Part shown: one piece after another, positions 15,658 to 35,331 of the stretch
How the letters are laid out: each line of letters starts with the position of its first letter
How positions within the stretch are numbered: position 1 is the first letter of the stretch
From: an uncultured Gammaproteobacteria bacterium
GTDB lineage: Bacteria > Patescibacteriota > Patescibacteriia > UBA2196
Reading direction: 5' to 3'
Assembly: GCA_964488715.1 (NCBI GenBank)
Contig: CAZAVD010000001.1
Coordinates: 1-51,831 of the forward strand
Length of the DNA: 51,831 nucleotides
Notes under the pieces: generated by a model
Seen by the model: the letters and a program-made list of their open reading frames with translations, nothing else
Told to the model about the DNA's origin: nothing
The model's database searches: none
Translations under genes and position numbers: made by a program

Positions 15658-15734
15658 CGGGCTGTGGCCTAATTGGCTAAGGCACTTGCTTTGGGAGCAA
15701 GGGATTGCGAGTTCGAGTCTCGCCAGCCCGACCA
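15658..15734 (+). tRNA. tRNA-Pro (anticodon GGG), CCA encoded
   Basis: Acceptor CGGGCTG/CAGCCCG. Anticodon loop TTGGGAG. T-arm GCGAG-TTCGAGT-CTCGC. Confidence 0.85.
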
Positions 15735-15735
15735 T

Positions 15736-15810
15736 GCGGGTATCGTATAAAGGCTATTATCCCAGGTTTCCAACCTGTAGATGGGGGTTCGATTCCCCCT
15801 ACCCGCTCCA
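15736..15810 (+). tRNA. tRNA-Gly (anticodon TCC), CCA encoded
   Basis: Acceptor GCGGGTA/TACCCGC. Anticodon loop TTTCCAA. T-arm GGGGG-TTCGATT-CCCCC. The D-stem is weak. Confidence 0.8.
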
Positions 15811-17430
15811 TCGTGAAAAAGCAGTCGCAAAACGGCTGTTTTTTCGTTTTCCTAAAGCATATTCTTTAAATTTCTGTGGTTCCAACATGGCTTTTTTAAT
15901 CTCTTTGTCTTCCACCCCTTTCTTGATTATTAAATAAGCTGGTTCGGGCTCTATTGTTAATATTCCGTCTTTTAACAAAAAGTTCTGACCAAACGCTCTT
16001 AATATTTGAGTTTTGGTTTCAAAATTACCTTTATCAAAACTATGTTTTGCATAGGTGGCAAAATGAAATGTCTTTTCTGACTTCTCTACCCATTCATCGA
16101 CACGCATTTCAATTTCTCTCAAGTCTCCTTCGATCCTTTTCTTTTCCGCCATCAGTATATTTTTTTGCTCTTTGAATTCTTTCTCGTCCATTAAATCTTG
16201 ATTTGTGTTTTCAGGTGAGATATAAAGTTTAATCAAATTATCAATTCTTTTTAAACAGCCATTAAAACTTTCTTGTTGATTTTTAAGTATTTGATTTCTA
16301 TCATTCTCTTCGATTTCATTTTCTTCTCTTAATAATTGTAAGGTAAATTCTAGAAATTCAGGTGGTATGGTTATGCTATCTAACTTTTCCATAACCTGTT
16401 TTTTTAATTCCTCATGACGAATTGTTTTCTGTGTGCAGTTTGTGTTCTTCTTGCGGTGGGTGCAATTATGATAGAGATAGCTACGCAATTCTCCAGTTGA
16501 TTTGATTTTCTTAAACTTTTCCTGTGAGGTAATCATTGCTCCGCATTCGCCACATCTAATAATCCCATTAAAAGGCAATCTTTTATTTTTTGGTCTTGGT
16601 TTACCTTTCTTGCCTAATATCTTTTGTGCAGTATCAAATTCTTGAGCAGTTATCATTGGTTTATGTTTGCCTTGATGTATTTCCCCCTCCCACATAAATT
16701 CTCCATAATAAAAAGGATTGGTAAATATTTTATAACCCACACTTAAGCTTAATTTGTCACTTGGGTGTCGTTTGGTATCAGGTGTTCTTAGTCCCCACTC
16801 ATCATTTGCCATTTCAACAATTTGTTTAACTGAATAATTGTCGGTTAAAAGGTGGTCCCACATTTTTCTTACTAAGCCAAACCTTTCTTGATCAACAAAT
16901 ATTTTCTTTTCTCCTTTCTCTCCCAGCTTGTCATTGGTGTAACCAATAGGAGCTCTGCCAGGTCGCCAACCTTTTTTAACTTTTGAATTAATACCCCTCT
17001 TAACATCTTTACTGAGATCTAAAATAAATTGATTGGCTACTCCCAATTCGACTGCCATCATTAGAACATTATCAGTCGGCAGATACTCTTTAGACGGTGT
17101 GATAATTGATTTAATAATTCCTTGCTGTAAAAGCCACTGAATTTTACCCCCGTCAATTGGGTTTCTTGATAAGCGGTTAATTTTCCAGCAAATAATTCCA
17201 TCTGCTTCGCCTCGTTCTATCATTTTTATCATTTCATCAAACATTGGTCTCCCTGGTTTTTTTGCCGATTTTGATTCACTAAATGTTTTTATTACATTTA
17301 AATTATTTTGATTTATTATTCTCTCATGTTCTTTGTGTTGATCCTCATTAGACTGAATTTGCCGATCTTCGCTATCGGTTGATTTTCTATTATATTCTAG
17401 GTAGCGTAAATTGTTTTGTTCTTTTTTCAT
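15799..17430 (-). CDS. large serine recombinase (integrase)
   Basis: 543 aa. Resolvase catalytic region YNRKSTDSEDRQ, a recombinase domain, a zinc ribbon (CGECGAMITS...YYHC) and a coiled-coil C-terminus. The last codons overlap the tRNA-Gly 3' end. Confidence 0.85.
   Translation of the reverse strand: MKKEQNNLRYLEYNRKSTDSEDRQIQSNEDQHKEHERIINQNNLNVIKTFSESKSAKKPGRPMFDEMIKMIERGEADGIICWKINRLSRNPIDGGKIQWLLQQGIIKSIITPSKEYLPTDNVLMMAVELGVANQFILDLSKDVKRGINSKVKKGWRPGRAPIGYTNDKLGEKGEKKIFVDQERFGLVRKMWDHLLTDNYSVKQIVEMANDEWGLRTPDTKRHPSDKLSLSVGYKIFTNPFYYGEFMWEGEIHQGKHKPMITAQEFDTAQKILGKKGKPRPKNKRLPFNGIIRCGECGAMITSQEKFKKIKSTGELRSYLYHNCTHRKKNTNCTQKTIRHEELKKQVMEKLDSITIPPEFLEFTLQLLREENEIEENDRNQILKNQQESFNGCLKRIDNLIKLYISPENTNQDLMDEKEFKEQKNILMAEKKRIEGDLREIEMRVDEWVEKSEKTFHFATYAKHSFDKGNFETKTQILRAFGQNFLLKDGILTIEPEPAYLIIKKGVEDKEIKKAMLEPQKFKEYALGKRKNSRFATAFSRWSG
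15821..15844 (+). terminator. terminator of the tRNA pair
   Basis: CAGTCG-CAAAA-CGGCTG followed by TTTTTT. It lies inside the 3' tail of the antisense recombinase ORF. Confidence 0.55.
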
Positions 17431-21985: not shown

Positions 21986-22292
21986 CACCATAGAAAAACA
22001 TGCAATTGGTATAGAAATCGGATTGTTCTTTGTGGTACTTTCAGAACTCTTGCACTTTCTCAAATATTCAAAATTCTCAGTTGATATGATGATGGTCGAG
22101 GTTTTTGCCTTAGTATTTATTGTGTTGATACTGAATTTATTTCAGACAGAAAAGGATAAGAGGAAATTGATCTTAAAAACTGCAGGGCTTATATTGCTAT
22201 TTGTGCTAATAGCTTTTCAGATTATGTTTGACCACATATTCGGGGAAGGGTTTACTTGTTGTGAGGAAGTGTTTGATTGGATATTAAGGTAG
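21957..22292 (+). CDS. hypothetical membrane protein
   Basis: 111 aa with about 3 hydrophobic helices. Overlaps the previous gene by 29 nt. Confidence 0.45.
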   Translation: MKKLIKKINDTIEKHAIGIEIGLFFVVLSELLHFLKYSKFSVDMMMVEVFALVFIVLILNLFQTEKDKRKLILKTAGLILLFVLIAFQIMFDHIFGEGFTCCEEVFDWILR

Positions 22293-22325
22293 TAAATATA
22301 GATAAAAGGTAGTAAATATAGATAA
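22286..22325. repeat. perfect 2 x 20 bp tandem duplication
   Basis: AAGGTAGTAAATATAGATAA occurs twice, straddling the stop codon at 22290..22292. Confidence 0.9.
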
Positions 22326-22331
22326 TAAGAT

Positions 22332-22355
22332 AAACCGCTAATATTTGCGGTTTTT
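22332..22355 (+). terminator. rho-independent terminator
   Basis: AACCGC-TAATATTT-GCGGTT followed by TTT. Confidence 0.6.
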
Positions 22356-22372
22356 ATTTTCATATACAACTA

Positions 22373-22401
22373 TTGACAGAGAAAAGTATAAGGAATATAA
22401 T
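22373..22401 (+). promoter_or_regulatory. consensus promoter TTGACA-17-TATAAT (distal hsd promoter)
   Basis: TTGACA at 22373..22378 and TATAAT at 22396..22401. Confidence 0.6.
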
Positions 22402-22467: not shown

Positions 22468-23037
22468 ATGAATACTAAATACCTCAAAGAAATTGCATTA
22501 GTTATTGCTGGTTATTCGTTTAGATCAGCATTAAAACCACGCTCAGAAGGCTCTATGGCCGTTATCCAGGCCAAGGACATCGTGGATAATCTTTTTGTTA
22601 ATTCAAATAATCTAACCAAAATTGATCCGCCACAATATCAAGCTAAGGCTATAACACAAAAAAATGATATTGTTGTTTCCTCTCGTGGTTGCTTTAGGGC
22701 AAATGTTGTTCAAGATAATACTAGTAAAATAATAGCCGCTTCATCTGTTTATGTGTTAAGGCTGCAGGATAAAAATATATTACCAGAATACTTGGCAATA
22801 TATCTCAACTCAATTGACGGACAGAAAAAACTCAAAGAAAAAGTCACAGGCAGTGTTATTAAGACAATTCTTCGTAAAGATTTAGAAAATATTAAAATAC
22901 CAATCCCAGGTCAAGATATACAGAATAAAATTATTAAAATTTATAACAACAACCAAATTCAACAAAAATTATTAACTCAAAAAAAGATATTAATCAACCA
23001 AGTAGTTGAAACCTCAATATCTAATTTTCTAAAATAA
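22468..23037 (+). CDS. hsdS: half-size type I restriction specificity subunit (single TRD)
   Basis: 189 aa. One target-recognition-like domain followed by a conserved helical region (LENIKIPIPGQDIQNKIIKIY...). Lies directly upstream of hsdM. Confidence 0.6.
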   Translation: MNTKYLKEIALVIAGYSFRSALKPRSEGSMAVIQAKDIVDNLFVNSNNLTKIDPPQYQAKAITQKNDIVVSSRGCFRANVVQDNTSKIIAASSVYVLRLQDKNILPEYLAIYLNSIDGQKKLKEKVTGSVIKTILRKDLENIKIPIPGQDIQNKIIKIYNNNQIQQKLLTQKKILINQVVETSISNFLK

Positions 23038-23038
23038 T

Positions 23039-24556
23039 ATGTCTAACTCGAAATTCACCCAAGAACAACTTAATAAAACACTTTGGCAAGCAGCTGACTC
23101 ATCTCGCTCCTCTCTTGATGGTGGAGTGTATAAAAATTATGTGTTAGTGATGTTGTTTTATAAATACATTAGCGACTTGTCAAAAAAGCAACACGAAAGA
23201 TATAAAGAAAGATTTGGTGATGATGAAGCACGCATTCAAGAGAAAATGAAATCAGATCGTTTTTACTTACCGCCCAATACCTCTTTTGAATATATTTACA
23301 GAATAAATGAGCAAGATAATATTGGCGAGGAAATTAATAAAGCATTAGACAAAATTGAAGATCATAATAAGCAAAAGCTGGAAGGGATTTTGACATCCCT
23401 TGATTTTAATTCAGAGAACACTTTGGGCAAATTGGAACAACGCAACAAAATGATCCGCCACTTAATTCATGATTTTCATAAAATAGATTTGAGCGAAGTG
23501 AATGATGATATTATTGGCAATTCATATATGTATATGATTGAGAGGTTTGGTTCTGACGCAGGCAAAAAAGCTGGAGAATTTTTTACCGTCAAATGCGTAG
23601 CTAAATTATTAGCAAAGCTTGCCGAGCCAAAAGACGGTGACAGAATTTGTGACCCAGCCTGTGGATCGGGCGGACTACTTTTACTTGCTGGTGAAGAGAT
23701 AGAAAAACAAGGCTCAAAAAATTATGCTTTATATGGACAGGAATCAACAGGCTCAACATACCAGCTTGCTAGAATGAACATGTTTCTGCATGGTAAAGAT
23801 TCGGCCCGTTTGGAATGGGGTGATACTCTTAATAATCCACTACTCGTAGAAAATGACAAGCTGATGAAGTTTGATTTAGCTATTGCTAATCCGCCATTTT
23901 CTCTAAAGAAATGGGGAGCAGAAAATGCAGAGGGTGATAAATATAATAGATTTTGGCGAGGAATACCACCAAAAGATAAAGGCGACTTTGCTTTTATTTC
24001 TCATATGGTAGAAGTAACTAAACCAAAAACTGGACGAGTAGCAGTAATTGTTCCGCATGGTGTTCTCTTTCGTGGCGGAGCCGAGGGTAAAATCAGGCAA
24101 AAAATGCTTGAGGAAAATATAATTGATTCAGTTATTGGACTTCCTGCTGGGTTATTCCAGACCACAGGTATTCCAGTGGCTATTTTAATAATTGATCGCT
24201 CAAGAGAAAAAGGTGGAGTTAATGAAAATAAGAAAGATATATTATTTATTGAAGGATCAAAAGAGTTCGTACCAGGCAAGGCACAAAACAGTATGAGTGA
24301 AGAAAACATTACCAAGATATTTGATACTTATAAAGACAGGAAAACAATTGATAAGTTTTCAAGAGTAGTTAAGCCCGATGAAATAAAAGAGAATGATTTT
24401 AATTTGAATATCACTCGTTATGTAGACACCTTTGAAGAAGAGGAAGAAATTGATATTTCCGCTAACTTGAAAGAGCTAGCCAAGATTGATCCCGAGTTGA
24501 ATAAACTTGAAAAAGAAATGCAGGGGTATCTAAAGGATTTAAATATTAATAATTAA
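23039..24556 (+). CDS. hsdM: type I R-M N6-adenine DNA methyltransferase subunit M
   Basis: HsdM N-terminal domain (LWQAADSSRSSLDG..YKNYVLVMLFYKYISD), AdoMet motif DPACGSGG and catalytic NPPF. Confidence 0.9.
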   Translation: MSNSKFTQEQLNKTLWQAADSSRSSLDGGVYKNYVLVMLFYKYISDLSKKQHERYKERFGDDEARIQEKMKSDRFYLPPNTSFEYIYRINEQDNIGEEINKALDKIEDHNKQKLEGILTSLDFNSENTLGKLEQRNKMIRHLIHDFHKIDLSEVNDDIIGNSYMYMIERFGSDAGKKAGEFFTVKCVAKLLAKLAEPKDGDRICDPACGSGGLLLLAGEEIEKQGSKNYALYGQESTGSTYQLARMNMFLHGKDSARLEWGDTLNNPLLVENDKLMKFDLAIANPPFSLKKWGAENAEGDKYNRFWRGIPPKDKGDFAFISHMVEVTKPKTGRVAVIVPHGVLFRGGAEGKIRQKMLEENIIDSVIGLPAGLFQTTGIPVAILIIDRSREKGGVNENKKDILFIEGSKEFVPGKAQNSMSEENITKIFDTYKDRKTIDKFSRVVKPDEIKENDFNLNITRYVDTFEEEEEIDISANLKELAKIDPELNKLEKEMQGYLKDLNINN

Positions 24557-24583: not shown

Positions 24584-25088
24584 ATGGAGAAAACTAAAAG
24601 ACAAATTTTCTACAGCTTTCACTACAAGCCAGATAATTGGAGAGTAGCTCAGGTTAGAAATATAGGTTCTGTTGAGGGTAATAAACCAGCCCCCCGATAA
24701 TGATTGGGAGACTATAACCCAAGAAGGAGATGATGCAATTAGAGATTGGATTAATAAACAAATGAAATATCGTTCGTGTACAGTCGTCCTTGTGGGAGCA
24801 AATACAGCAAACAGAAAGTGGATTAATTATGAAATAAGAAAATCGTGGGAATCAGGAATGGGGGTCGTTGGCATACGCATACACGGCTTAAAGAACAAAG
24901 ATGGTCTTATTGCAAAAAGAGGAAATAATCCATTTGATTATTTATCATTTAAAGATGATAAGAAATTATCAAAGGTCATTAAGTGTTATAACCCGCAAGG
25001 GGAAAACAGTAAAGAAAGGTATGCTTGGATTTCAAATTATTTATCAGCTGCGGTTGAAGAGGCTATAGAAATTAGAAATAATTATTAA
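24584..25088 (+). pseudogene. thsB: ThsB-like TIR (DUF1863) gene interrupted by a +1 frameshift in a C6 run
   Basis: From the ATG at 24584 the frame reads MEKTKRQIFYSFHYKPDNWRVAQVRNIGSVEGNKPAPR and stops at 24698..24700. The next frame continues DNDWETITQEGDDAIRDWINKQMKYRSCTVVLVGANTANRKWINYEIRKSW...GIRIHGL...NPFDYL. The C run is at 24690..24695. Confidence 0.75.
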
Positions 25089-25092
25089 TTAT

Positions 25093-25500
25093 ATGAGTGA
25101 AAAAAAATTAAAACATTTAGAATTTATTCAAGGTGTCATCTCGAGAATGGCTGGCAACCTCTTTTATTTAAGAGGTTGGGTGATTACCCTAATGGCAGGT
25201 ATTCTTGTTTTGCTAACCCAGGTAACTGTTGGGAAATTGCCAGTGATATTTTTAACCATGATAATTTTAATTTTTTGGATATATGATGGTTATTTTCTAT
25301 CCTTAGAAAGAATGCACAGGGACTTATATGATAAGGTAAGAAATTTAGAAGAAGAGAAGATTGATTTTTCAATGTCTGTAAGTGAATTCAAAAAACTTAA
25401 AAAGAACTCCATAATTTTTTGTATCTTCTCGAAGACTCTTCTATTCTTTTATGCTCCTTTATTAATATCAGCTTTATATGTAATTTTCTCTATAAAATAA
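25093..25500 (+). CDS. small 3-TM membrane protein (candidate effector)
   Basis: 135 aa. Helices WVITLMAGILVLLTQV, LPVIFLTMIILIFWIYDGYFL and IIFCIFSKTLLFFYAPLLISALYVIFSI. Separated from the flanking TIR genes by 4-nt and 5-nt gaps. Confidence 0.6.
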   Translation: MSEKKLKHLEFIQGVISRMAGNLFYLRGWVITLMAGILVLLTQVTVGKLPVIFLTMIILIFWIYDGYFLSLERMHRDLYDKVRNLEEEKIDFSMSVSEFKKLKKNSIIFCIFSKTLLFFYAPLLISALYVIFSIK

Positions 25501-25505
25501 ATCAT

Positions 25506-26192
25506 ATGTCTAATCAGAACACATCAAGAAAGATTTTTGTTAGCTATAAACATAGCGATAGTTCGGTTGCTCCATTAGATAGGGCCACCCAGCAATATGA
25601 GATGACTCAAGCCAGGCATTATGTGGCAGAGCTTGAGGAGTTATTGAAAGACGAGAACCATATATACAAAGGCGAAAGAGATAACGAGCCACTAGATCAG
25701 TTTAAAGATGAAACAATCGAATCAAAATTAAAACAGAAAATCTTTGATAGCAGTTTAACTATTGTTTTAATATCCAAAAATATGAAAAATCTATATGAAA
25801 ACGAGAGTGACCAGTGGATTCCTTGGGAGATTTCTTATTCGCTAAAAGAGATGACAAAAAATGGAGTAACCAGTAAAACAAATGCCATGTTGGCTGTTGT
25901 TCTACCAGATGAAAATAACAGCTATACCTACATGGTTAATCACTTACCTTGTGTTATTCGTTGGAATACGGCTGATTTGTTTAGTATTTTGAACAGAAAC
26001 ATGTTTAATCGAAATAATAAAAATACTAAAAGATGTGAACAATGTGGTGGTTATCACCATATAGGCGACGATCATTCTTATGTTCATCCAGTAAAATGGT
26101 ATGACTTTATTAGAGACATGAATTCATATATAGATTATGCTTATAACTTGAATGACAATATTCAGGATTATGATCTCAGAAAATTATGCTAA
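25506..26192 (+). CDS. second TIR-like (DUF1863-type) protein with a Cys/His-rich C-terminus
   Basis: ATG at 25506. Contains KIFVSYKHSD, SSLTIVLISKNM and SDQWIPWEISYSL. The C-terminus has CEQCGGYHH. Confidence 0.6.
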   Translation: MSNQNTSRKIFVSYKHSDSSVAPLDRATQQYEMTQARHYVAELEELLKDENHIYKGERDNEPLDQFKDETIESKLKQKIFDSSLTIVLISKNMKNLYENESDQWIPWEISYSLKEMTKNGVTSKTNAMLAVVLPDENNSYTYMVNHLPCVIRWNTADLFSILNRNMFNRNNKNTKRCEQCGGYHHIGDDHSYVHPVKWYDFIRDMNSYIDYAYNLNDNIQDYDLRKLC

Positions 26193-27406
26193 ATAATAAA
26201 CAAAACAATACCCCCCAAGGTTGGACCGAGGAAAAAGTCGGTGATGTTTTTGATTTTATAAATTCTTATTCTTTTTCTCGTGCTAACTTGACTAATGATA
26301 TTTTGAATAACGGACACATTGGTAATATCCATTATGGGGACATTCATGCAACCTATAAATCGTCTTTTATAGATGTTCAGAAAACAAAAATACCTTTAAT
26401 TAAAGATGAAGATTTTGTTCCTAAAGATAAGGATTTATTAAAGAACGGAGACCTAGTTATGGCTGACGCTTCAGAAGATTATGAGGGCATAGGCACAACT
26501 GTATCAATACATGGAATTAATGATAATAAAGTGGTAGGTGGTTTGCATACATTTGTTTTAAGGGATAATAAGAATAAAACTAACGAATATTACAGACAAT
26601 ACATTTTTAGCAATCCAGACATAAAAGATAAATTAAGAAAAATTGCTACTGGCGTATCTGTTTTTGGTATTTCTAAAACTAATTTATCAAAAGTTAAATT
26701 ACCACTTCCGTCCTTGCTAGAACAAAATGCAATTGTAGAAGTTTTGGAAACTTGGGATAAATATCTAGAAGATTTAACTAATAAAATTAAATTAAAGAAA
26801 AGGGTTAAAAAAGGGTTAATGCAAAAGCTGTTAAGTGGTGATAAAAGGTTAAAAGGATTTAGCAGTGAATGGAAGAAAGTTAAGTTGGGGGATGTTTGTG
26901 AGAGAATTAGGACGGGAAAGATAGATGCTAATGCCATGGTTAAAAATGGTAAATATAGATTTTATACTTGTGCAAAGGAGTATTTTAAAATAGATGATTA
27001 TGCTTTTGATACAGAGGCCTTATTAGTTTCTGGTAACGGAGCAAATGTTGGATACATTCATTATTATAAAGGAAAATTTAATGCTTACCAAAGAACATAT
27101 GTATTAGATAATTTTAAATCGGATATAATTTTTACAAAATACATTCTAGATAAAAATTTAAGAAAAAGAATTTATGAAGAAAAATGTGACGGAAATACTC
27201 CTTATATCAAAATGAATACCCTAACAGATATGATAATAGAAATACCTGAACTAAAAGAACAGCAAGCAATTGCTGAAGTATTAACCAAAGCTGATGAAGA
27301 AATAGAAGGATTAGAAAAAAAGAAAAAGATTGTTGAGAAGCAGAAAAAATATTTACTAAATAATTTAATCACTGGGAAAATACGATTACCCGAATTCTCA
27401 AAATAA
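26186..27406 (+). CDS. hsdS: type I R-M specificity subunit S (two TRDs)
   Basis: 406 aa. Two TRDs are separated by conserved repeats (LPLPSLLEQNAIVEVL and IPELKEQQAIAEVL). Confidence 0.9.
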   Translation: MLNNKQNNTPQGWTEEKVGDVFDFINSYSFSRANLTNDILNNGHIGNIHYGDIHATYKSSFIDVQKTKIPLIKDEDFVPKDKDLLKNGDLVMADASEDYEGIGTTVSIHGINDNKVVGGLHTFVLRDNKNKTNEYYRQYIFSNPDIKDKLRKIATGVSVFGISKTNLSKVKLPLPSLLEQNAIVEVLETWDKYLEDLTNKIKLKKRVKKGLMQKLLSGDKRLKGFSSEWKKVKLGDVCERIRTGKIDANAMVKNGKYRFYTCAKEYFKIDDYAFDTEALLVSGNGANVGYIHYYKGKFNAYQRTYVLDNFKSDIIFTKYILDKNLRKRIYEEKCDGNTPYIKMNTLTDMIIEIPELKEQQAIAEVLTKADEEIEGLEKKKKIVEKQKKYLLNNLITGKIRLPEFSK

Positions 27407-27410
27407 TAAT

Positions 27411-30400
27411 ATGCAACAAAATACCAGCAATATAGACAAAGTAAATTTTGATGAAACCAAGCAATCACAATTACCGTTTGTGGAGTTTTTGGTTAACATG
27501 GGCTATCGATATATTTCACCCAAGGAAGTATTGTCTGAACGAGGTGGTGACATTTCTAAATACATTTTACGAGATACAGCTATTAAGAAATTATCCGAGA
27601 TTAATGAATACGAACATAATGGAGAAATGCATAAATTTAAAGATAAGGATGTTGTTGAGGCAATAGATGAATTAGAAAATATTCAGTTTGAGGGATTGAT
27701 TGATACTTCTCGCAAAATTTATTCCATGATTATGCCAACCTCTGGCGGTAAGACTATTAAAGTTTTTCATGGTGGTAAGAATGTATCTAAGAATTTTCGT
27801 TTCATTGATTTTGCCAATCCTTTAAATAATGATTTTGCGGTTACTGTTGAATATGAAGCTATGGGCAAAAAAGGTATTCGTCCTGATATTGTGGTATTTG
27901 TGAATGGAATACCTTTTGCTGTAATTGAGAATAAAAAAGCCTCTGAATCAATAGAAAAAGCATTGAGCCAGCTAAACAGAAATCAGGGAGCTGATTATTG
28001 TCCTAAGCTTTTTATATACCCCCAATTACTCGTAGGAGCTAACAAGGAAGAATTAAAATATGGCACGACTGGCACGCCAAATAAGTTTTATGCTAGTTGG
28101 AGAGAGAAAGGAACGGATAAGGATAAACTAATAAAGGAAGCCAGTAAAATTATTGGCAAGGAAATTGATAAAAAAATATATCAGCAAATTCTGACTGATT
28201 TGAATGGTGCAACTTTTGGTCACACTCAAATTTTAGACCGTGTTCCAACCGAACAAGATTTATCTGTAATGATGATGTTTGGTAAGGCTAGATTACTTGA
28301 TTTAACCAAGAACCATATTCTTTATGACGCAGGCATTAAGAAAATAATGCGTTATCAGCAATACTTTGCTATTCAAAAGATATTAAATAGAATTGATGAA
28401 AAAGAAGATACTAAAAAAGGAAGCAAAAGAAAGGGTGGTATTGTATGGCACACACAAGGATCGGGCAAGTCTTTGACCATGGTAATGTTTGTTAAAGCAT
28501 TAATTGAAAATCCGAATATTATTAACCCAAGAGTATTGATTGTAACTGATAGACGAGATTTAGATAGGCAAATAAAAACCACCTTTGAAAATAGTGGATT
28601 AAAGAAAAATGTTATTCAAGCTAAGAGTGGGGAGCATTTAATTGATCTACTTCGCAAAAAAGATTTACGAGTAGTTACCACTTTGATACATAAATTTCAA
28701 TCAGCCGCTAAAAAGAAAACAACGCTGGAAGATTTGGATGAGAATATTTTTGTATTGATTGATGAGGCTCATCGCTCACAAGGCGGTATGGCTAATTTGG
28801 AAATGAATAAGATAATACCAAATGCTTGTTATATTGCTTTTACTGGCACACCTCTTTTGAAACAAGAGAAGTCAAGACAAAAGTTTGGATCCTTTATCGA
28901 CAAGTACACTATCGACGATGCCCTAGAGGATGAAATTATTCTGCCACTTATTTATGAAGGTCGTTTTGTGGATCTCAAGTCAGACAAGAAAGAAATGGAT
29001 AGACAGGTTGATCGTCTAACCGAAGGACTTGGTGACAATCTAAAAAAACAACTACAAGCAATGACTGAAAAAAGAATTATCAAAGACAACTCTAATCGTA
29101 TTGCCGAAATTGCTTATGACATAGAAAAACACTATTTAAAAACTTTTGCAGGTACGGGATTAAAGGGGCAAATTGTAGCTCCATCTAAGTTCTCTGCAAT
29201 GTTGTTCCAAAATTATTTTAAAAATAGTGGAAAAATAAATACTGCTTTAGTTGTATCAGACGAAAATGGAATTATTGACGATCAAGATGAACATAAAAAA
29301 GAAGTAGAGGGGTACCTTAAAAACATTAAAGAGAAATACCAAAGTCTATTATCATATGAAAAAGATGTGATTAAAAGTTTTGTTCATAATGATGAGGGGG
29401 TGGAACTTTTGATTGTGGTTGATAAGCTTTTGACTGGTTTTGATGCCCCGAGAAATACGGTCTTATACTTATCCAAAGAACTTAGGGATCATAATTTATT
29501 ACAAGCAATTGCTCGTGTTAATCGTTTGTATGACAATGAGCAACCACCAAAAACTTGCGGATATATTATCGACTATTCCGAGAATGCACAGAACTTAAAA
29601 ACAGCCATGCAATTGTTTGGTAACTATGATGAGGAAGATGTTGACGGAGCCTTGATTGATGTTCAGGATAAAATAGATGAACTTGAATCAAGTTATAGCG
29701 AGCTCCATGAAATGTTTAAATCTGTTAAAGGTGATGATGAAGCGTATATACAGCATTTGTCTGAGGAGCCAACTCGTAAAGAATTCTATGATACATTAAA
29801 CCAATTTTTAAAGAGTTTTAATGAATGTGTTGTATTGCAAGGTTTTGTGCATGAATTCAAACACCTTGATACCTATAGGCAAGAATTAAAGAAGTTTATG
29901 GAACTTCGAAAGGTTGCTAGTGTGCGTTATGCCGATCGAGTGGATTTTAATAAATATAAACAAGCTTTAGTTAAAATAATGGATAATAATATCAAGGCAG
30001 AAGAAGCAGAGCTTTTGACCAAGCAAATAACAGTAACTGACAGAGAGGCTTTTGAGCAAGTTGTAGAAGAAATGGGGTCAGATAAATCTAGAGCTGAAGC
30101 AATCGCCGCTCAAGTGCAAAGAACTATTACAGAAAAACTAGAAACAGATCCTATATTTTACAGAAGATTTTCCGAGAAAGTAGATGAAATTTTACAGAAG
30201 ATGAGGGAGAAAAAAATAGCTGATATTGAAGCCTTGAAGCAAATGAAATTGATTGACAAAGAAGTTGATAATAAAACAGATGATGAAATACCAGAAGATA
30301 TTAGAGCTAAAAAAGGATCAGATATTTTTTATAGAAATTTACAAGATGAGTTTTCTGTTCATAATGTTGATGATGAAAAATATCAAAGTATAATTTTGGA

Positions 30401-30602
30401 AATGTTTGGTGTGTTGAAGAAAGAAGCTATTGTTGACTGGTATAGAAATAATGAAGTTAAGCGTGTGATATATAATAAACTGGATGATTATTTGTATGAT
30501 GAGATTATTCAAAACCAAGGCATTAAATTAACCAATGAAGAAATAAAAACAATCATTGATAAAACCATTAAATTGGCAACAGAAAATTACGAGATTATAT
30601 AA
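27411..30602 (+). CDS. hsdR: type I restriction endonuclease subunit R
   Basis: 1063 aa. N-terminal nuclease region (PDIVVFVNGIPFAVIENK). SF2 motifs HTQGSGKS, DEAH (VLIDEAHRSQ), FTGTP and QAIARVNR. Confidence 0.9.
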   Translation: MQQNTSNIDKVNFDETKQSQLPFVEFLVNMGYRYISPKEVLSERGGDISKYILRDTAIKKLSEINEYEHNGEMHKFKDKDVVEAIDELENIQFEGLIDTSRKIYSMIMPTSGGKTIKVFHGGKNVSKNFRFIDFANPLNNDFAVTVEYEAMGKKGIRPDIVVFVNGIPFAVIENKKASESIEKALSQLNRNQGADYCPKLFIYPQLLVGANKEELKYGTTGTPNKFYASWREKGTDKDKLIKEASKIIGKEIDKKIYQQILTDLNGATFGHTQILDRVPTEQDLSVMMMFGKARLLDLTKNHILYDAGIKKIMRYQQYFAIQKILNRIDEKEDTKKGSKRKGGIVWHTQGSGKSLTMVMFVKALIENPNIINPRVLIVTDRRDLDRQIKTTFENSGLKKNVIQAKSGEHLIDLLRKKDLRVVTTLIHKFQSAAKKKTTLEDLDENIFVLIDEAHRSQGGMANLEMNKIIPNACYIAFTGTPLLKQEKSRQKFGSFIDKYTIDDALEDEIILPLIYEGRFVDLKSDKKEMDRQVDRLTEGLGDNLKKQLQAMTEKRIIKDNSNRIAEIAYDIEKHYLKTFAGTGLKGQIVAPSKFSAMLFQNYFKNSGKINTALVVSDENGIIDDQDEHKKEVEGYLKNIKEKYQSLLSYEKDVIKSFVHNDEGVELLIVVDKLLTGFDAPRNTVLYLSKELRDHNLLQAIARVNRLYDNEQPPKTCGYIIDYSENAQNLKTAMQLFGNYDEEDVDGALIDVQDKIDELESSYSELHEMFKSVKGDDEAYIQHLSEEPTRKEFYDTLNQFLKSFNECVVLQGFVHEFKHLDTYRQELKKFMELRKVASVRYADRVDFNKYKQALVKIMDNNIKAEEAELLTKQITVTDREAFEQVVEEMGSDKSRAEAIAAQVQRTITEKLETDPIFYRRFSEKVDEILQKMREKKIADIEALKQMKLIDKEVDNKTDDEIPEDIRAKKGSDIFYRNLQDEFSVHNVDDEKYQSIILEMFGVLKKEAIVDWYRNNEVKRVIYNKLDDYLYDEIIQNQGIKLTNEEIKTIIDKTIKLATENYEII

Positions 30603-30604
30603 AT

Positions 30605-31309
30605 ATGGAGACTCAAATTTTTACTTATGGAAAGTATTCTTATGAATATTTTCTAATTAGACAATCACGTAAAACCGTAAGCTTAATTGTTTATCCTAAT
30701 TTTAAGATAGTTTTGAAATGTCCTATTGACTATAAAGATGAAAAGATACAGAGATTTCTAAAAAACAAATGGTCTTGGCTTGAGAAGCAAATCAAATACT
30801 TTAAGAAATACCAAAAGACTATCTTAAATAAAGAGTATTTATCAGGTGAATCATTTTTGTATTTAGGCAGGCAATATAAGTTATCAGTTAAAAGAGGTGC
30901 AGAAGATAAGGTGACTTTAAAGCATGGTAAGTTATTGTTATTTACTACGGAAAAAGTTGGTAACAAAAAACATAATAGAAAAATATTAAAGGGTTGGTAT
31001 GCGAATAGGATTGAGAAAATATTTAATGATGAGTATAAAAAGGTGTTAAAGACTTTTAATTATGTTTTTGAACCGCAGCTTATAACTCGTGAAATGAATA
31101 AACGCTGGGGAAGTTTCTTGAACCATAAAAAAATAATTCTTAATCCTAAGTTAATTCAAGCTCCTAAAGAATGTATTGATTATGTAATTACCCATGAATT
31201 ATGTCACATGAAACATAAAAATCATGATACGAAATTTTACAGATTATTAAAAAGTAAAATTCACAATTGGGAAGAGATTAAAGAGAAGTTGGAATTAAGA
31301 TTTATATAA
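30605..31309 (+). CDS. M48/DUF45 (YgjP-like) zinc metallopeptidase
   Basis: HExxH motif in VITHELCHMKHKNH. 234 aa. This family commonly trails hsdR. Confidence 0.75.
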   Translation: METQIFTYGKYSYEYFLIRQSRKTVSLIVYPNFKIVLKCPIDYKDEKIQRFLKNKWSWLEKQIKYFKKYQKTILNKEYLSGESFLYLGRQYKLSVKRGAEDKVTLKHGKLLLFTTEKVGNKKHNRKILKGWYANRIEKIFNDEYKKVLKTFNYVFEPQLITREMNKRWGSFLNHKKIILNPKLIQAPKECIDYVITHELCHMKHKNHDTKFYRLLKSKIHNWEEIKEKLELRFI

Positions 31310-31363
31310 GGTTATGTATAAACACCTAAAATCAAAACAAGAATACATTGATAGATATGACCG

Positions 31364-31392
31364 CCTGACAGTTGATAGCTGTCGGGTTTTTT
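31364..31392 (+). terminator. rho-independent terminator of the hsd operon
   Basis: CCTGACAG-TTGATAG-CTGTCGGG followed by TTTTTT. Confidence 0.7.
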
Positions 31393-31445: not shown

Positions 31446-31474
31446 TTGACAACTTTTTAATTATGTGCTATAAT
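31446..31474 (+). promoter_or_regulatory. perfect consensus promoter TTGACA-17-TATAAT
   Basis: TTGACA at 31446..31451 and TATAAT at 31469..31474. The -35 box lies in the right arm of the inverted repeat TTGTCAGGGTT/AACCTTGACAA (31429..31452). Confidence 0.65.
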
Positions 31475-31480
31475 TGAGTA

Positions 31481-31792
31481 TACAAAATAAAGATGTGGAT
31501 ATTTCCTGATCTTTACAATCAAACTTAAAAACAAGAGAGACAGTTTAGTAGGCACTGTGAGTCCTACAATAAGCAATTTTATAGGTTTATTAGCTTTTTT
31601 GCGGGCTTCTCTCTTGATTCACAGAAGGCCGTTTTTGTTTTTTTAAGCAGTAAAGTGGGAGTAAATAATTATTCTCACTTAGATTACTTAAAAAGTTCTT
31701 TACAACATCCTCCTAAATGATTTAAGGTAATTAGTCAGTTTAATAAGCTGTTTGATTACCTTAAATCATGAAAAACATTGATGGAGGATAAA
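31481..31792 (+). ncRNA. structured ~310-nt leader / possible cis-regulatory RNA or sRNA
   Basis: Mutually exclusive pairings: 31532..31540 with 31608..31616, versus the terminator-like hairpin at 31601..31644. A 15-bp helix pairs 31717..31731 with 31755..31769. An anti-SD ATCCTCC at 31707..31713 is complementary to the SD at 31783..31789. Confidence 0.4.
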
Positions 31793-32374
31793 ATGAAAAC
31801 TGTTTTGATGGGACCCCCAAGGTCCGGTAAAAGTTGCATGCGAGAAGGATTAAAGCAGGCAATTAAGAATATCCCAGGAGCGCCGTATCCTTATGTAATC
31901 ACGGCATGTCCTGATGGCGAAGGTGCTTGGTTCCAGGAAGCTGCAAACCGCGATTCGGAAAAAGCCCGCGAATTAAAAACTGATTATAAACAATCAGTCG
32001 GTGGTTTTTCCCCCAAATTTGTTCAGCGGATTGCAGAATCCGTAGCCAACTGCACTTTGCCGATGACTTTGGTGGATATTGGCGGAATTCCATCAAAAGA
32101 AAATGAAGTAATCTGTGCTTCCGCCACTCATGCCATCATTCTGGCTGGTGATATGAGTAAAGTTCCTGAGTGGAGAGAGTTCTGCTTAAAGCTCGGAATT
32201 GAAGTGATAGCAGAAATTCATTCTGACTATCATGGCCAGACAGACGAAGTCCCCACCCTTGGTGAGGATGAAATCTGGAGAGGATCCGTGCATTATCTTG
32301 AGCGCGGTGAACCAGTGGCCGAGCGTCCCACTATAAAAAAGCTTGCAAAGATATTGATTGAAAAATCAAAATAA
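31793..32374 (+). CDS. P-loop NTPase (uncharacterised; partner of Csx3-like gene)
   Basis: The ATG at 31793 lies 5 nt after GGAGG. Walker A is GPPRSGKS, with a Walker-B-like LVDIGG. The region is GC-enriched. Confidence 0.6.
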   Translation: MKTVLMGPPRSGKSCMREGLKQAIKNIPGAPYPYVITACPDGEGAWFQEAANRDSEKARELKTDYKQSVGGFSPKFVQRIAESVANCTLPMTLVDIGGIPSKENEVICASATHAIILAGDMSKVPEWREFCLKLGIEVIAEIHSDYHGQTDEVPTLGEDEIWRGSVHYLERGEPVAERPTIKKLAKILIEKSK

Positions 32375-33459: not shown

Positions 33460-35331
33460 GTGAATAATCAGAGAACTGTGAACGGCAAGGCTCTTGGCCT
33501 GGCGTTCTGGAAGAAAGCTGACGAAGTTGTGGGGCTGGTCAAAAAAAGTCGTGGTATTGTGGTAATGCCTACTGGCACTGGCAAAACAACCCAAACACCG
33601 CAATTGTTACACGAACAAGGTTTTACTCGCCAAGGAAAAATTTATATATCTGTTCCCAGAAGAATCTTGGCAGTTGAACTGGCAGCTCGTGTTGCTGATG
33701 AAATGGGAGTAAAACTCGGTGAATTGGTTGGCTATCAGATCCGTGGTGAACGTAAATTGAGTCATCAAACACGAATCATCTTTATGACAGAAGGAACATT
33801 ACGCGGAAAAATTCGCAATAATCCAATGTTAAAAGGTGTCAGCGTGGTCGTATTCGATGAGTTTCATCAACGAACTCTTATGAGTGACTTCAATGTTGCT
33901 CTTATCGAACGAGCTCAGCAAGAAGGTTCGCAGGTAGCGTTTTTGCTCATGTCGGCCACAATTGACCCGACCTATCTTGCCAATCACTTTGATTGCGACG
34001 TGGTTGATGGTTCTGATTTGGATACTACCTATCCAATTACTGAGGAATATATTGATCCTCAGGAAAACGGTGGTTTATTCAAAACAGCAGCCGAGCAGGT
34101 AGAGCGCATGATTTTGGAAGCTGAAGGCAATGGTATGGTTTTTATGCCTGGCAAAGCTGAAATCAACCAGACAATCGATGCAATCCGTGATCTTAATCTG
34201 CCCAAAAATGTAACTGTTCTACCGTTACACGGTGATCTTGATGGCGATGACCGCCATGCTCCATTTGTGGAACGAGATGGTATTACAGTCACGATTGCAA
34301 CGGACATTGTTGAGACTGGTGCCACATTACCAAATATTGGCTGGGAAGTTGATTCTGGACTGGCAAGAGAAAAAGGATATGATCCCGTATCTGATATTTC
34401 TTCCTTGAAAGTTCAGAAAATAGCCAAAGACCGCTTAAAGCAACGTCGTGGCCGAACAGGTAGAGTTCGTGAAGGTCGATATGTTGGATTATTTTCAAAG
34501 GATGACTTTGATTCTCGTCCAGATCGAACCAAGCCCGAAATCTTTCGAACTCCTTTAAGAGAAGTTGTATTAACCATCAAATCACTTGGTCTGTCTCGAG
34601 AAGGAAATTCAATTCGATTGATTGACTATCCGCCAAAAACCAACTGGAAGCAAGCTAAACAACAATTGCAGATGCTGGAGTTTGTTAACAGCGACGATGA
34701 GGCGAACATCAACGAATATGGCAAAAAAGCTGTTGAACTTGGCTGTGATCCTCGTGAGTCTGCTATGTTGCTCAAGTCCGCTCAGTTGGGTTGTTTACGG
34801 GAGATGTCAATTGCTATTGCCGCCCAGCAAAGCCATCGCTTACTGTATTGTCCGAAAAGTGAAGAATATGAGGCCAATATGGCTCATGCGAGATTCCGCA
34901 CTTCGGAAACATGTGATGGATGGACAGCAGTAAAGGTGATTCGGATGGCAGAAGCTCGTGGCGAAGAATCTCTCGGATCCTGGTGTCGAGCAAATTATGT
35001 ATCATACCGCTCGATTCAGGAAATCTGGCAAACTTCACGTCAACTGCTTACAACCATGAAAGGTTTAGGTTTTTCAGTAAATGAGCAGGAAGGCACTGAA
35101 GAAAATTTACGCAAAGCAATTTTTGCCGGATTGCCAGACCGAGTATTCCAATGGGATGGACGGGATTGGTTCAAACGTGATGATGATTCTTGCCTGATGG
35201 GACGAGACTCGGTAATCCGTGAACGATCAAGTGATACACCAGTAGCCGCTTGGGAAGTTATCGAAATTTCTACCAGAAAAGGTGGAACTCTTCGATTGAT
35301 CACCAATGCGGTGACAGTTGAAACAAATTAA
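33460..35331 (+). CDS. DEAH/RHA-family helicase (HrpA/HrpB-like)
   Basis: GTG start after AAGGAG. Motifs PTGTGKTT, DEFH, SAT (LMSATID), FMPG, TDIVETGATLPNI and QRRGRTGR. HA2-like region LEFVNSDDEANINEYGKKAVELGCDPRESAMLLKS. Confidence 0.85.
   Translation: MNNQRTVNGKALGLAFWKKADEVVGLVKKSRGIVVMPTGTGKTTQTPQLLHEQGFTRQGKIYISVPRRILAVELAARVADEMGVKLGELVGYQIRGERKLSHQTRIIFMTEGTLRGKIRNNPMLKGVSVVVFDEFHQRTLMSDFNVALIERAQQEGSQVAFLLMSATIDPTYLANHFDCDVVDGSDLDTTYPITEEYIDPQENGGLFKTAAEQVERMILEAEGNGMVFMPGKAEINQTIDAIRDLNLPKNVTVLPLHGDLDGDDRHAPFVERDGITVTIATDIVETGATLPNIGWEVDSGLAREKGYDPVSDISSLKVQKIAKDRLKQRRGRTGRVREGRYVGLFSKDDFDSRPDRTKPEIFRTPLREVVLTIKSLGLSREGNSIRLIDYPPKTNWKQAKQQLQMLEFVNSDDEANINEYGKKAVELGCDPRESAMLLKSAQLGCLREMSIAIAAQQSHRLLYCPKSEEYEANMAHARFRTSETCDGWTAVKVIRMAEARGEESLGSWCRANYVSYRSIQEIWQTSRQLLTTMKGLGFSVNEQEGTEENLRKAIFAGLPDRVFQWDGRDWFKRDDDSCLMGRDSVIRERSSDTPVAAWEVIEISTRKGGTLRLITNAVTVETN

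Follow-up and report, generated by a model that had tools for sequence, protein, structure and literature searches.

Types V to XI of the anti-phage system Thoeris have recently been defined, and type V was described as the combination of a TIR protein, ThsB, with a protein named ThsF (Yirmiya et al., bioRxiv 10.64898/2025.12.03.692087). ThsF is a protein with three transmembrane (TM) segments that was annotated by these authors as DUF2270, and in the AlphaFold3 model it assembles into a ring of seven identical copies, with pockets of positive charge between neighboring protomers. The type V system of Bacillus thuringiensis DAR 81934 was reported to signal via 3'cADPR, a molecule of the cyclic ADP-ribose (cADPR) type (bioRxiv 10.64898/2025.12.03.692087). 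In systems with several ThsB proteins, the ranges of recognized phages are additive and one signal is shared, and TIR1 and TIR2 of Bacillus dafuensis both make the isomer that activates ThsA (Ofir et al. 2021). Here, we analyzed a stretch of 51,831 nucleotides from an uncultured bacterium (contig CAZAVD010000001.1 of assembly GCA_964488715.1; the whole stretch is referred to as the window). Three co-oriented genes, thsB1, thsF, and thsB2, lie inside positions 24584 to 26192, flanked by hsdM and hsdS of a type I restriction-modification (R-M) operon. As judged from homology, the trio very probably constitutes a type V Thoeris cassette with a frameshifted thsB1, nested in the R-M operon and probably co-transcribed with it.

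A combination of this kind had already been catalogued before type V Thoeris was named and validated in December 2025, namely, as PDC-M50 in PADLOC (PADLOC-DB v2.0.0, 2023). The PDC families apparently stem from a "guilt-by-embedding" screen for genes that are located inside BREX, DISARM, or type I R-M systems; a literature search for PDC-M50 returned nothing. A sequence-only reading of the window had proposed a minimal Thoeris variant at this locus. The proposed architecture holds, but the novelty does not, since both PDC-M50 and type V Thoeris cover it. The locus is a further example of a known system and not a new kind.

Results

The middle gene is homologous to a validated ThsF

The central gene of the trio, thsF (gene 2; 25093 to 25500, plus strand), encodes a protein of 135 amino acids (aa). 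It showed 42% identity over 123 aa (E value of 4e-33) to ThsF of B. thuringiensis DAR 81934, which was located via its ThsB sequence in Table S1 of Yirmiya et al. and is the 141-aa product of the gene directly downstream. All four PDC-M50A models of PADLOC matched gene 2 (best match, 2.8e-41), and all four also matched the DAR 81934 protein (best match, 1.8e-48). The sequence-only reading had suggested a Thoeris variant in which the effector is a mere membrane protein and carries no SIR2, SLOG, or Macro domain; with gene 2 recognized as a ThsF homolog, this suggestion turned out to be correct. The TIR proteins encoded on either side point to the same type. Gene 1 was 44% identical to the TIR protein IMG 2509886574, and gene 3 was 49% identical to IMG 2512524509 and IMG 2509795226. 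TIR proteins of both subtypes are listed under "DUF2270 - Type V" in Table S1 (bioRxiv 10.64898/2025.12.03.692087). Because gene 2 is homologous to a validated ThsF and both TIR subtypes are listed under this heading, the assignment of the trio to type V Thoeris is well founded. The sequence similarities on which it draws greatly exceed chance expectation.

The AlphaFold2 (AF2) monomer model of gene 2, calculated with 125 homologs, had a mean local confidence (pLDDT) of 95.8 and an overall fold score (pTM) of 0.85. Helices were predicted at residues 3 to 43, 49 to 84, and 114 to 133. Hydropathy placed the membrane segments at approximately residues 24 to 44, 50 to 68, and 107 to 133, with most of the charge in the N-terminal helix and in the loop of residues 69 to 106. 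Model and hydropathy agree with the 135-aa protein with three TM helices that had been recognized earlier. We infer from the positive-inside rule that the N terminus faces the cytoplasm and the C terminus the outside. The residues conserved throughout the superfamily (K5, H8, Q13, R18, K/R27, W29, W62, D65, E72, R76, and Y79) map to the N-terminal helix, to the predicted cytoplasmic ends of TM1 and TM2, and to the loop between TM2 and TM3. On the model, these positions would fit a cytosolic site for nucleotide binding or gating. No solved structure matched ThsF by sequence, and a Foldseek search yielded no significant hit (best E value of 1.3).

The two flanking genes encode ThsB-type TIR proteins

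The third gene, thsB2 (gene 3; 25506 to 26192, plus strand, with an ATG start codon at 25506), is intact and encodes a ThsB-type TIR protein of 228 aa with a C-terminal extension containing Cys and His residues. It matched the PADLOC ThsB model PDLC00428 over the full length (2.2e-73) and the Pfam family ThsB_TIR (PF08937; 5.3e-7). Among solved structures, it matched 9vyl_A (9.3e-64), which is named "putative cyclic ADP-D-ribose synthase TIR1"; we take this to be the UniProt-style name of B. dafuensis TIR1. Glu108 is retained within the conserved WEI motif, and KIFVSYKHSD, SLTIVLIS, and WIPWEISY are all present.

The first gene, thsB1 (gene 1; 24584 to 25088, plus strand), carries a +1 frameshift and was compared after repair of the reading frame. 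The repaired protein matched Pfam PF08937 (2.8e-27) and the PADLOC models ThsB (2.4e-69) and PDC-M50B (4.2e-63). The solved structures related to it include 8wcf_A (5.8e-37), Bacillus cereus ThsB (6lhy; 1.5e-21), and 9b7d. Its Glu83 lies in a YEI motif that aligned with the YEI motif of B. cereus ThsB, which holds the catalytic E85; the frameshift is located upstream of E83. The motifs FYSFHYKPDNWRVAQVRN, TVVLVGANTANRKWINYEI, GIRIH, and NPFDYL were also found. Thus, every motif quoted in the sequence-only reading for genes 1 and 3 is present, and the profile searches that it had proposed (Pfam and PADLOC) placed both genes in ThsB TIR families. A literature search on the PDB codes 9VYL and 8WCF retrieved no relevant paper, and an NCBIfam scan of all three cassette proteins gave no informative match.

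thsB1 is probably inactivated by a one-base insertion

One point had been missed in the sequence-only reading, namely, that gene 1 is not a single open frame. It starts with an ATG at 24584, and its N-terminal part consists of 38 codons (24584 to 24697; MEKTKRQIFYSFHYKPDNWRVAQVRNIGSVEGNKPAPR) that are followed by a TAA stop codon (24698 to 24700). The C-terminal part continues in another frame up to 25088. The frameshift site is a homopolymer of six C residues (C6; 24690 to 24695, plus strand). Deletion of one C restored a 167-aa protein with the junction EGNKPAPDNDWETI. This junction was identical in intact homologs from four other genomes, in which the A-P-D residues are encoded by the codons GCC-CCA-GAT, GCA-CCT-GAT, and GCT-CCA-GAC. 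A strain with a 95% identical ThsF has an intact gene call of 168 aa at the position of thsB1.

The C6 run was found in all eight assemblies that span this position, which come from several samples (JGI, ENA, and Logan). Therefore, the extra C is real and is not an assembly error. These assemblies were 99.8 to 100% identical to the window and represent essentially one clone, and their agreement therefore does not independently show that the frameshift is maintained. We conclude that thsB1 is probably inactivated by the insertion of one base and that the sensor ThsB1 is lost in this strain. With thsB1 frameshifted, ThsB2 would be the only active sensor.

Runs of at least six C or G residues occur at five places in the window, which has a GC content of 30%. 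Besides the run in thsB1, they are located at 26211 to 26216, 19802, and 47710 (C6) and at 1491 (G8); the C6 run at 26211 to 26216 lies 26 nucleotides (nt) into hsdS. By a rough estimate, approximately one such run would be expected by chance, and the homopolymers might be contingency tracts.

These tracts bear on another explanation for the split gene, which is that thsB1 is still alive and that some full-length ThsB1 is made. The C6 run would then act either as a phase-variation switch by slipped-strand mispairing or as a CCC-C site for a +1 ribosomal slip. If tRNA-Pro slipped by +1 from CCC (24692 to 24694) to CCC (24693 to 24695), precisely the conserved sequence A-P-D-N-D-W would result. 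Both parts of the gene are open in their own frames and contain no other stop codon, and after repair the protein is matched by ThsB models over its entire length. Switching would also suit the five runs at such a low GC content, one of which lies at the 5' end of hsdS. However, the length of the run was uniform in the eight assemblies, with no heterogeneity at the consensus level, and a tract of 6 nt is short for phase variation. In E. coli prfB, the +1 shift is stimulated by a Shine-Dalgarno-like element at a short spacing (approximately 3 nt). In thsB1, no such element is present at this spacing, the nearest being GAGGG approximately 12 nt upstream, and the codon that follows, CGA, cannot be called rare (6.6 per 1,000). 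The retention of both frames says little in clonal assemblies. A programmed +1 frameshift is thus weakly indicated by the sequence, and we regard continued production of ThsB1 by either route as quite unlikely.

ThsF homologs are paired with TIR genes and recur in R-M operons

One genome per species was scanned for close relatives of ThsF, which yielded 28 loci; the gene was complete in 27 of them. Most of these loci belonged to metagenome-assembled genomes of Patescibacteria, also called the candidate phyla radiation (CPR), and some were labeled Gammaproteobacteria, Acidobacteriota, or Bradymonadales. A TIR gene of the gene 1 type, the gene 3 type, or both was found directly beside the ThsF homolog and on the same strand in all 27 loci. 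The neighborhood of the 135-aa protein, which the sequence-only reading had singled out as a check on its proposal, therefore supports the link to TIR genes. The order thsB1-thsF-thsB2 was found in eight loci and the order thsF-thsB2-thsB1 in two; in the remaining loci, one or two TIR genes are arranged differently.

Type I R-M genes surrounded the cassette in 15 of the 28 loci, and in 11 of these it was flanked by hsdM at one end and hsdS at the opposite end. In two further loci, L028 (3803 to 7238) and L029 (3342 to 8042), the cassette is located between a type II methyltransferase gene and the gene for its restriction endonuclease, and in L026 it adjoins a type II methyltransferase gene. 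The two type II loci L028 and L029 indicate that the nesting is not specific to type I systems.

The family as a whole is large. A search with a profile of the gene 2 family retrieved 4,507 cluster representatives at an E value of 1e-3 or below. Distant members were also found outside R-M systems, namely, a trio in L045 and a pair of TIR_2 and ThsF genes beside an AAA ATPase gene in L043. In L041 (1885 to 7539), the distant family member P0125 follows a helix-turn-helix (HTH) gene and precedes radical-SAM, FGE-sulfatase, and SDR genes as well as a gene for a large TIR-NACHT-FGE-sulfatase protein; this context is unlike that of the simple ThsB pairs. The validated type V pair of B. thuringiensis (L039, 4454 to 6759) adjoins a UvrD-helicase gene and a gene for an OLD-TOPRIM/AAA_15 ATPase, which together look Gabija-like.

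The cassette is probably co-transcribed with a complete type I R-M operon

The three genes are tightly packed. Between the hsdM stop (24556) and gene 1 there are 27 nt, followed by gaps of 4 nt between genes 1 and 2 and 5 nt between genes 2 and 3, and the end of gene 3 (26192) overlaps the hsdS start (26186) by 7 nt. All coordinates and spacings given in the sequence-only reading were accurate. The operon begins with a half-size HsdS-like gene (22468 to 23037, plus strand) that encodes 189 aa with one target-recognition domain (TRD) and matched PADLOC Specificity_I (1.2e-18) and Pfam Methylase_S. It continues with hsdM (23039 to 24556, plus strand; methyltransferase of 505 aa; PADLOC MTase_I, 7.8e-124; Pfam HsdM_N and N6_Mtase), the cassette, hsdS (26186 to 27406, plus strand; full-size specificity subunit of 406 aa; PADLOC Specificity_I, 3.1e-56), and hsdR (27411 to 30602, plus strand; restriction subunit of 1,063 aa; PADLOC REase_I, 1.4e-147; Pfam HSDR_N, ResIII, and others). 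A gene for a YgjP-like metallopeptidase (30605 to 31309, plus strand; Pfam PF01863) is the final gene of the operon. With hsdM, hsdS, and hsdR all identified by PADLOC, the host operon constitutes a complete type I R-M system. It is located on a low-GC chromosome.

A promoter-like site with a 12/12 consensus match (TTGACA-17-TATAAT; 22373 to 22401, plus strand) was found upstream of the operon, and a terminator-like hairpin (22332 to 22353, plus strand) lies ahead of this site. A second, strong terminator-like hairpin with 11 pairs and a T run follows ygjP (31363 to 31387, plus strand). A scan of the cassette interior revealed no convincing terminator. With the promoter-like site upstream, a terminator-like hairpin after ygjP, and none that convinces inside the cassette, the sequence is consistent with co-transcription, and the trio is probably transcribed together with the half-size hsdS, hsdM, hsdS, hsdR, and ygjP. 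The sequence-only reading had regarded co-transcription as compulsory; the scan fits this view, in terms of consensus matches only.

Several further observations concern the operon. The half-size, single-TRD HsdS gene lies directly 5' of hsdM in addition to the full-size hsdS, and the same arrangement is conserved in at least two of the related loci (L021 and L023). Shuffling between the two hsdS genes was considered and dropped, since no long direct or inverted repeats connect them. A 20-nt unit (AAGGTAGTAAATATAGATAA) is perfectly duplicated in tandem at 22286 to 22325, just 5' of the terminator-like hairpin and the promoter-like site. In one sample (L003, ERZ23499038), an A-to-T single-nucleotide polymorphism (SNP) at 26234 changes codon 17 of hsdS from AAA to TAA. 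Judging from this codon change, hsdS is either knocked out or N-terminally truncated in this population variant.

The region around the operon contains further candidate defense genes

Directly downstream of the operon, a Csx3-AAA-like gene was identified (31778 to 32374, plus strand; PADLOC Csx3, 1.7e-57) that has a 12/12 promoter match of its own (31446 to 31474). It is followed by a DEAD/ResIII helicase gene (33460 to 35331). The GC content is 0.38 to 0.42 at 32 to 36 kb, compared to approximately 0.28 to 0.33 elsewhere in the window, and the stretch with these two genes may represent another acquired defense module. Approximately 1.2 kb 5' of the operon, a LOOT RNA (Rfam RF03000; 21091 to 21215, plus strand) scored 79 bits (gathering score, 46.4) and is located among small hypothetical open reading frames (ORFs). 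Farther upstream, a large serine recombinase gene (15799 to 17430, minus strand) abuts genes for tRNA-Pro and tRNA-Gly (15658 to 15810), and many small ORFs without an assigned function fill the space between the recombinase gene and the R-M operon. The defense genes probably reside on an integrated island; a search for att-like repeats found none.

Discussion

Several observations weigh against the assignment of the cassette to a working type V Thoeris system, and they concern the family label, the signal, and the integrity of the operon. In Pfam hmmscan searches, neither gene 2 nor any of its 33 close homologs nor ThsF of DAR 81934 matched PF10028 (DUF2270). Since this holds for the validated protein as well, the label "DUF2270" rests on remote homology. 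Among 125 more distant representatives of the gene 2 family, 15 matched PF10028 (best match, 1.4e-5), 38 matched DUF3278, and 9 matched "8xMP." By these profile matches, the relationship of gene 2 to DUF2270 appears to be real, though remote and transitive. The identity of the signal is uncertain, since the type V systems in the published work differ with regard to 3'cADPR: addition of this molecule failed to trigger the type V system of Bacillus sp. 1NLA3E (bioRxiv 10.64898/2025.12.03.692087). The frameshifted thsB1 and the hsdS nonsense SNP in one sample, finally, raise the possibility that the operon is partly in decay.

For the cassette as type V Thoeris, the following mode of action can be proposed. 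A ThsB TIR protein, here ThsB2, would detect a phage-derived cue and convert NAD+ into a signal of the cADPR type. This signal is most likely 3'cADPR, because the validated type V ThsB makes this molecule and TIR1 and TIR2 of B. dafuensis make the ThsA-activating isomer, with 9vyl, the solved relative of gene 3, bearing the name TIR1. The signal would bind cytoplasm-facing sites on the three-helix protein ThsF, which, as a homo-oligomeric ring, would breach or depolarize the membrane, so that the infected cell would be stopped before phage release. Two different ThsB sensors would normally widen the range of phages that are recognized. The nature of the signal, the oligomerization of ThsF, its effect on the membrane, and the abortive outcome are drawn by analogy from published work on type V, type I, and multi-ThsB systems. 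A role of the cassette as a second line behind restriction is plausible.

The recurrent nesting raises the question of whether the cassette acts as a guard of the R-M system, in the way PrrC does for EcoprrI. In such an arrangement, the cassette would be silenced by the restriction enzyme or would sense its inhibition, for instance, by phage anti-restriction proteins, and the nesting would be mechanistic. This idea draws on the repeated position directly behind the methylase gene, both in the type I operons (15 loci, 11 of them with hsdM and hsdS as flanking genes) and in the two loci between a type II methyltransferase and its endonuclease, with one more beside a type II methyltransferase. 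The PADLOC PDC families are defined by such embedding, and PrrC is a precedent. However, the type V system of B. thuringiensis stands alone beside its Gabija-like genes, and the Thoeris operon alone works in B. subtilis; coupling to an R-M system is thus unnecessary for function. Other family members are located outside R-M operons, no sign of a protein-protein link was seen, and linked transfer together with shared expression can explain the embedding. We therefore consider guarding of the R-M system unlikely. A broader version holds that the placement behind the methylase of type I and type II R-M operons, mostly in CPR genomes, is functional. The cassette could be a guard that fires when anti-restriction proteins disable restriction, or its expression could be tied to methylase levels, and the C-tracts in thsB1 and hsdS could be repertoire switches within the population. 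To this wider proposal we attach a low probability.

Conversely, the whole cassette might be a nonfunctional relic that is carried along with the R-M operon, for which the frameshift in thsB1 and the hsdS nonsense variant in one sample could be quoted. Nevertheless, thsF and thsB2 are intact and have kept all family-invariant residues and the catalytic Glu. The gaps of 4 to 5 nt and the 7-nt overlap with hsdS point to tight translational coupling, and pairs of ThsF with one ThsB are common and apparently complete in other genomes. These features make a dead cassette improbable. A different membrane-effector Thoeris, either type II (TM plus Macro) or type VII (SLATT), likewise pairs TIR genes with membrane proteins. 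Yet no Macro or SLATT match was obtained in Pfam for gene 2 at an E value of 1 or below or for its 33 close homologs at 10 or below, and SLATT was not among the 25 most frequent Pfam families of the 125 distant members (E value of 0.1 or below). Moreover, 135 aa leave no room for a Macro domain, and gene 2 is directly homologous to ThsF. An assignment to type II or VII is accordingly extremely improbable, and type V Thoeris remains the preferred reading of the cassette.

For the locus, thsB1(pseudo)-thsF-thsB2 can be given as a confident annotation. Its Thoeris architecture had been deduced correctly from the sequence alone and is of a kind that has since been validated experimentally. The analysis records type V Thoeris in small genomes of the Patescibacteria type, which the main text of the published survey does not mention, and shows that the cassette is nested with striking regularity between M and S or R genes of R-M operons. 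If it is true that the nesting reflects functional coupling, it would represent a second guard arrangement of the PrrC kind; otherwise, the result is a routine annotation. Two points of modest interest are left, namely, that the cassette is repeatedly nested behind the methylase gene in R-M operons of both type I and type II in bacteria with small genomes and that the second sensor is frameshifted.

In comparison to known systems, the cassette shares with PrrC in the EcoprrI hsdMSR operon the position of an abortive-infection module within a type I R-M operon. However, PrrC is under the physical control of the R-M enzyme, and its proteins are unrelated to those described here; we know of no physical regulation of Thoeris by an R-M enzyme. 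Type II (TM plus Macro, His-ADPR) and type VII (SLATT, cADPR) Thoeris systems likewise direct TIR signaling to a membrane-spanning effector that kills the cell, whereas the effector in the window is much smaller, belongs to another family, and has no detectable Macro or SLATT domain. The type I system of B. dafuensis (ThsA, TIR1, and TIR2; Ofir et al. 2021) resembles the cassette in that several divergent TIR sensors serve one effector. The effector differs, being ThsF and not the SIR2-SLOG NADase ThsA, and the expected output would be membrane damage instead of NAD+ depletion. No SIR2-SLOG ThsA was found in the operon, and no SIR2 or SLOG domain was found in the other large ORFs of the window that were scanned.

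The closest counterparts are PDC-M50 and the type V system of B. thuringiensis DAR 81934. In PDC-M50, a small membrane protein (A) and a TIR protein (B) are combined, corresponding to genes 2 and 1, which lie side by side here, and the PDC families apparently consist of genes embedded in other systems, such as type I R-M, as is the cassette. PDC-M50 is a two-gene candidate without an assigned mechanism, whereas here a second ThsB of a different kind is also encoded (gene 3). The DAR 81934 system has the same core, a TIR sensor gene adjoining the gene of a three-helix membrane effector of approximately 140 aa. Its ThsB has 252 aa and belongs to another TIR cluster of Yirmiya et al., while the ThsB proteins of the window fall into other subfamilies. 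The cassette further differs from it in having two different ThsB genes that flank thsF, one of them frameshifted, and in being nested in a type I R-M operon.

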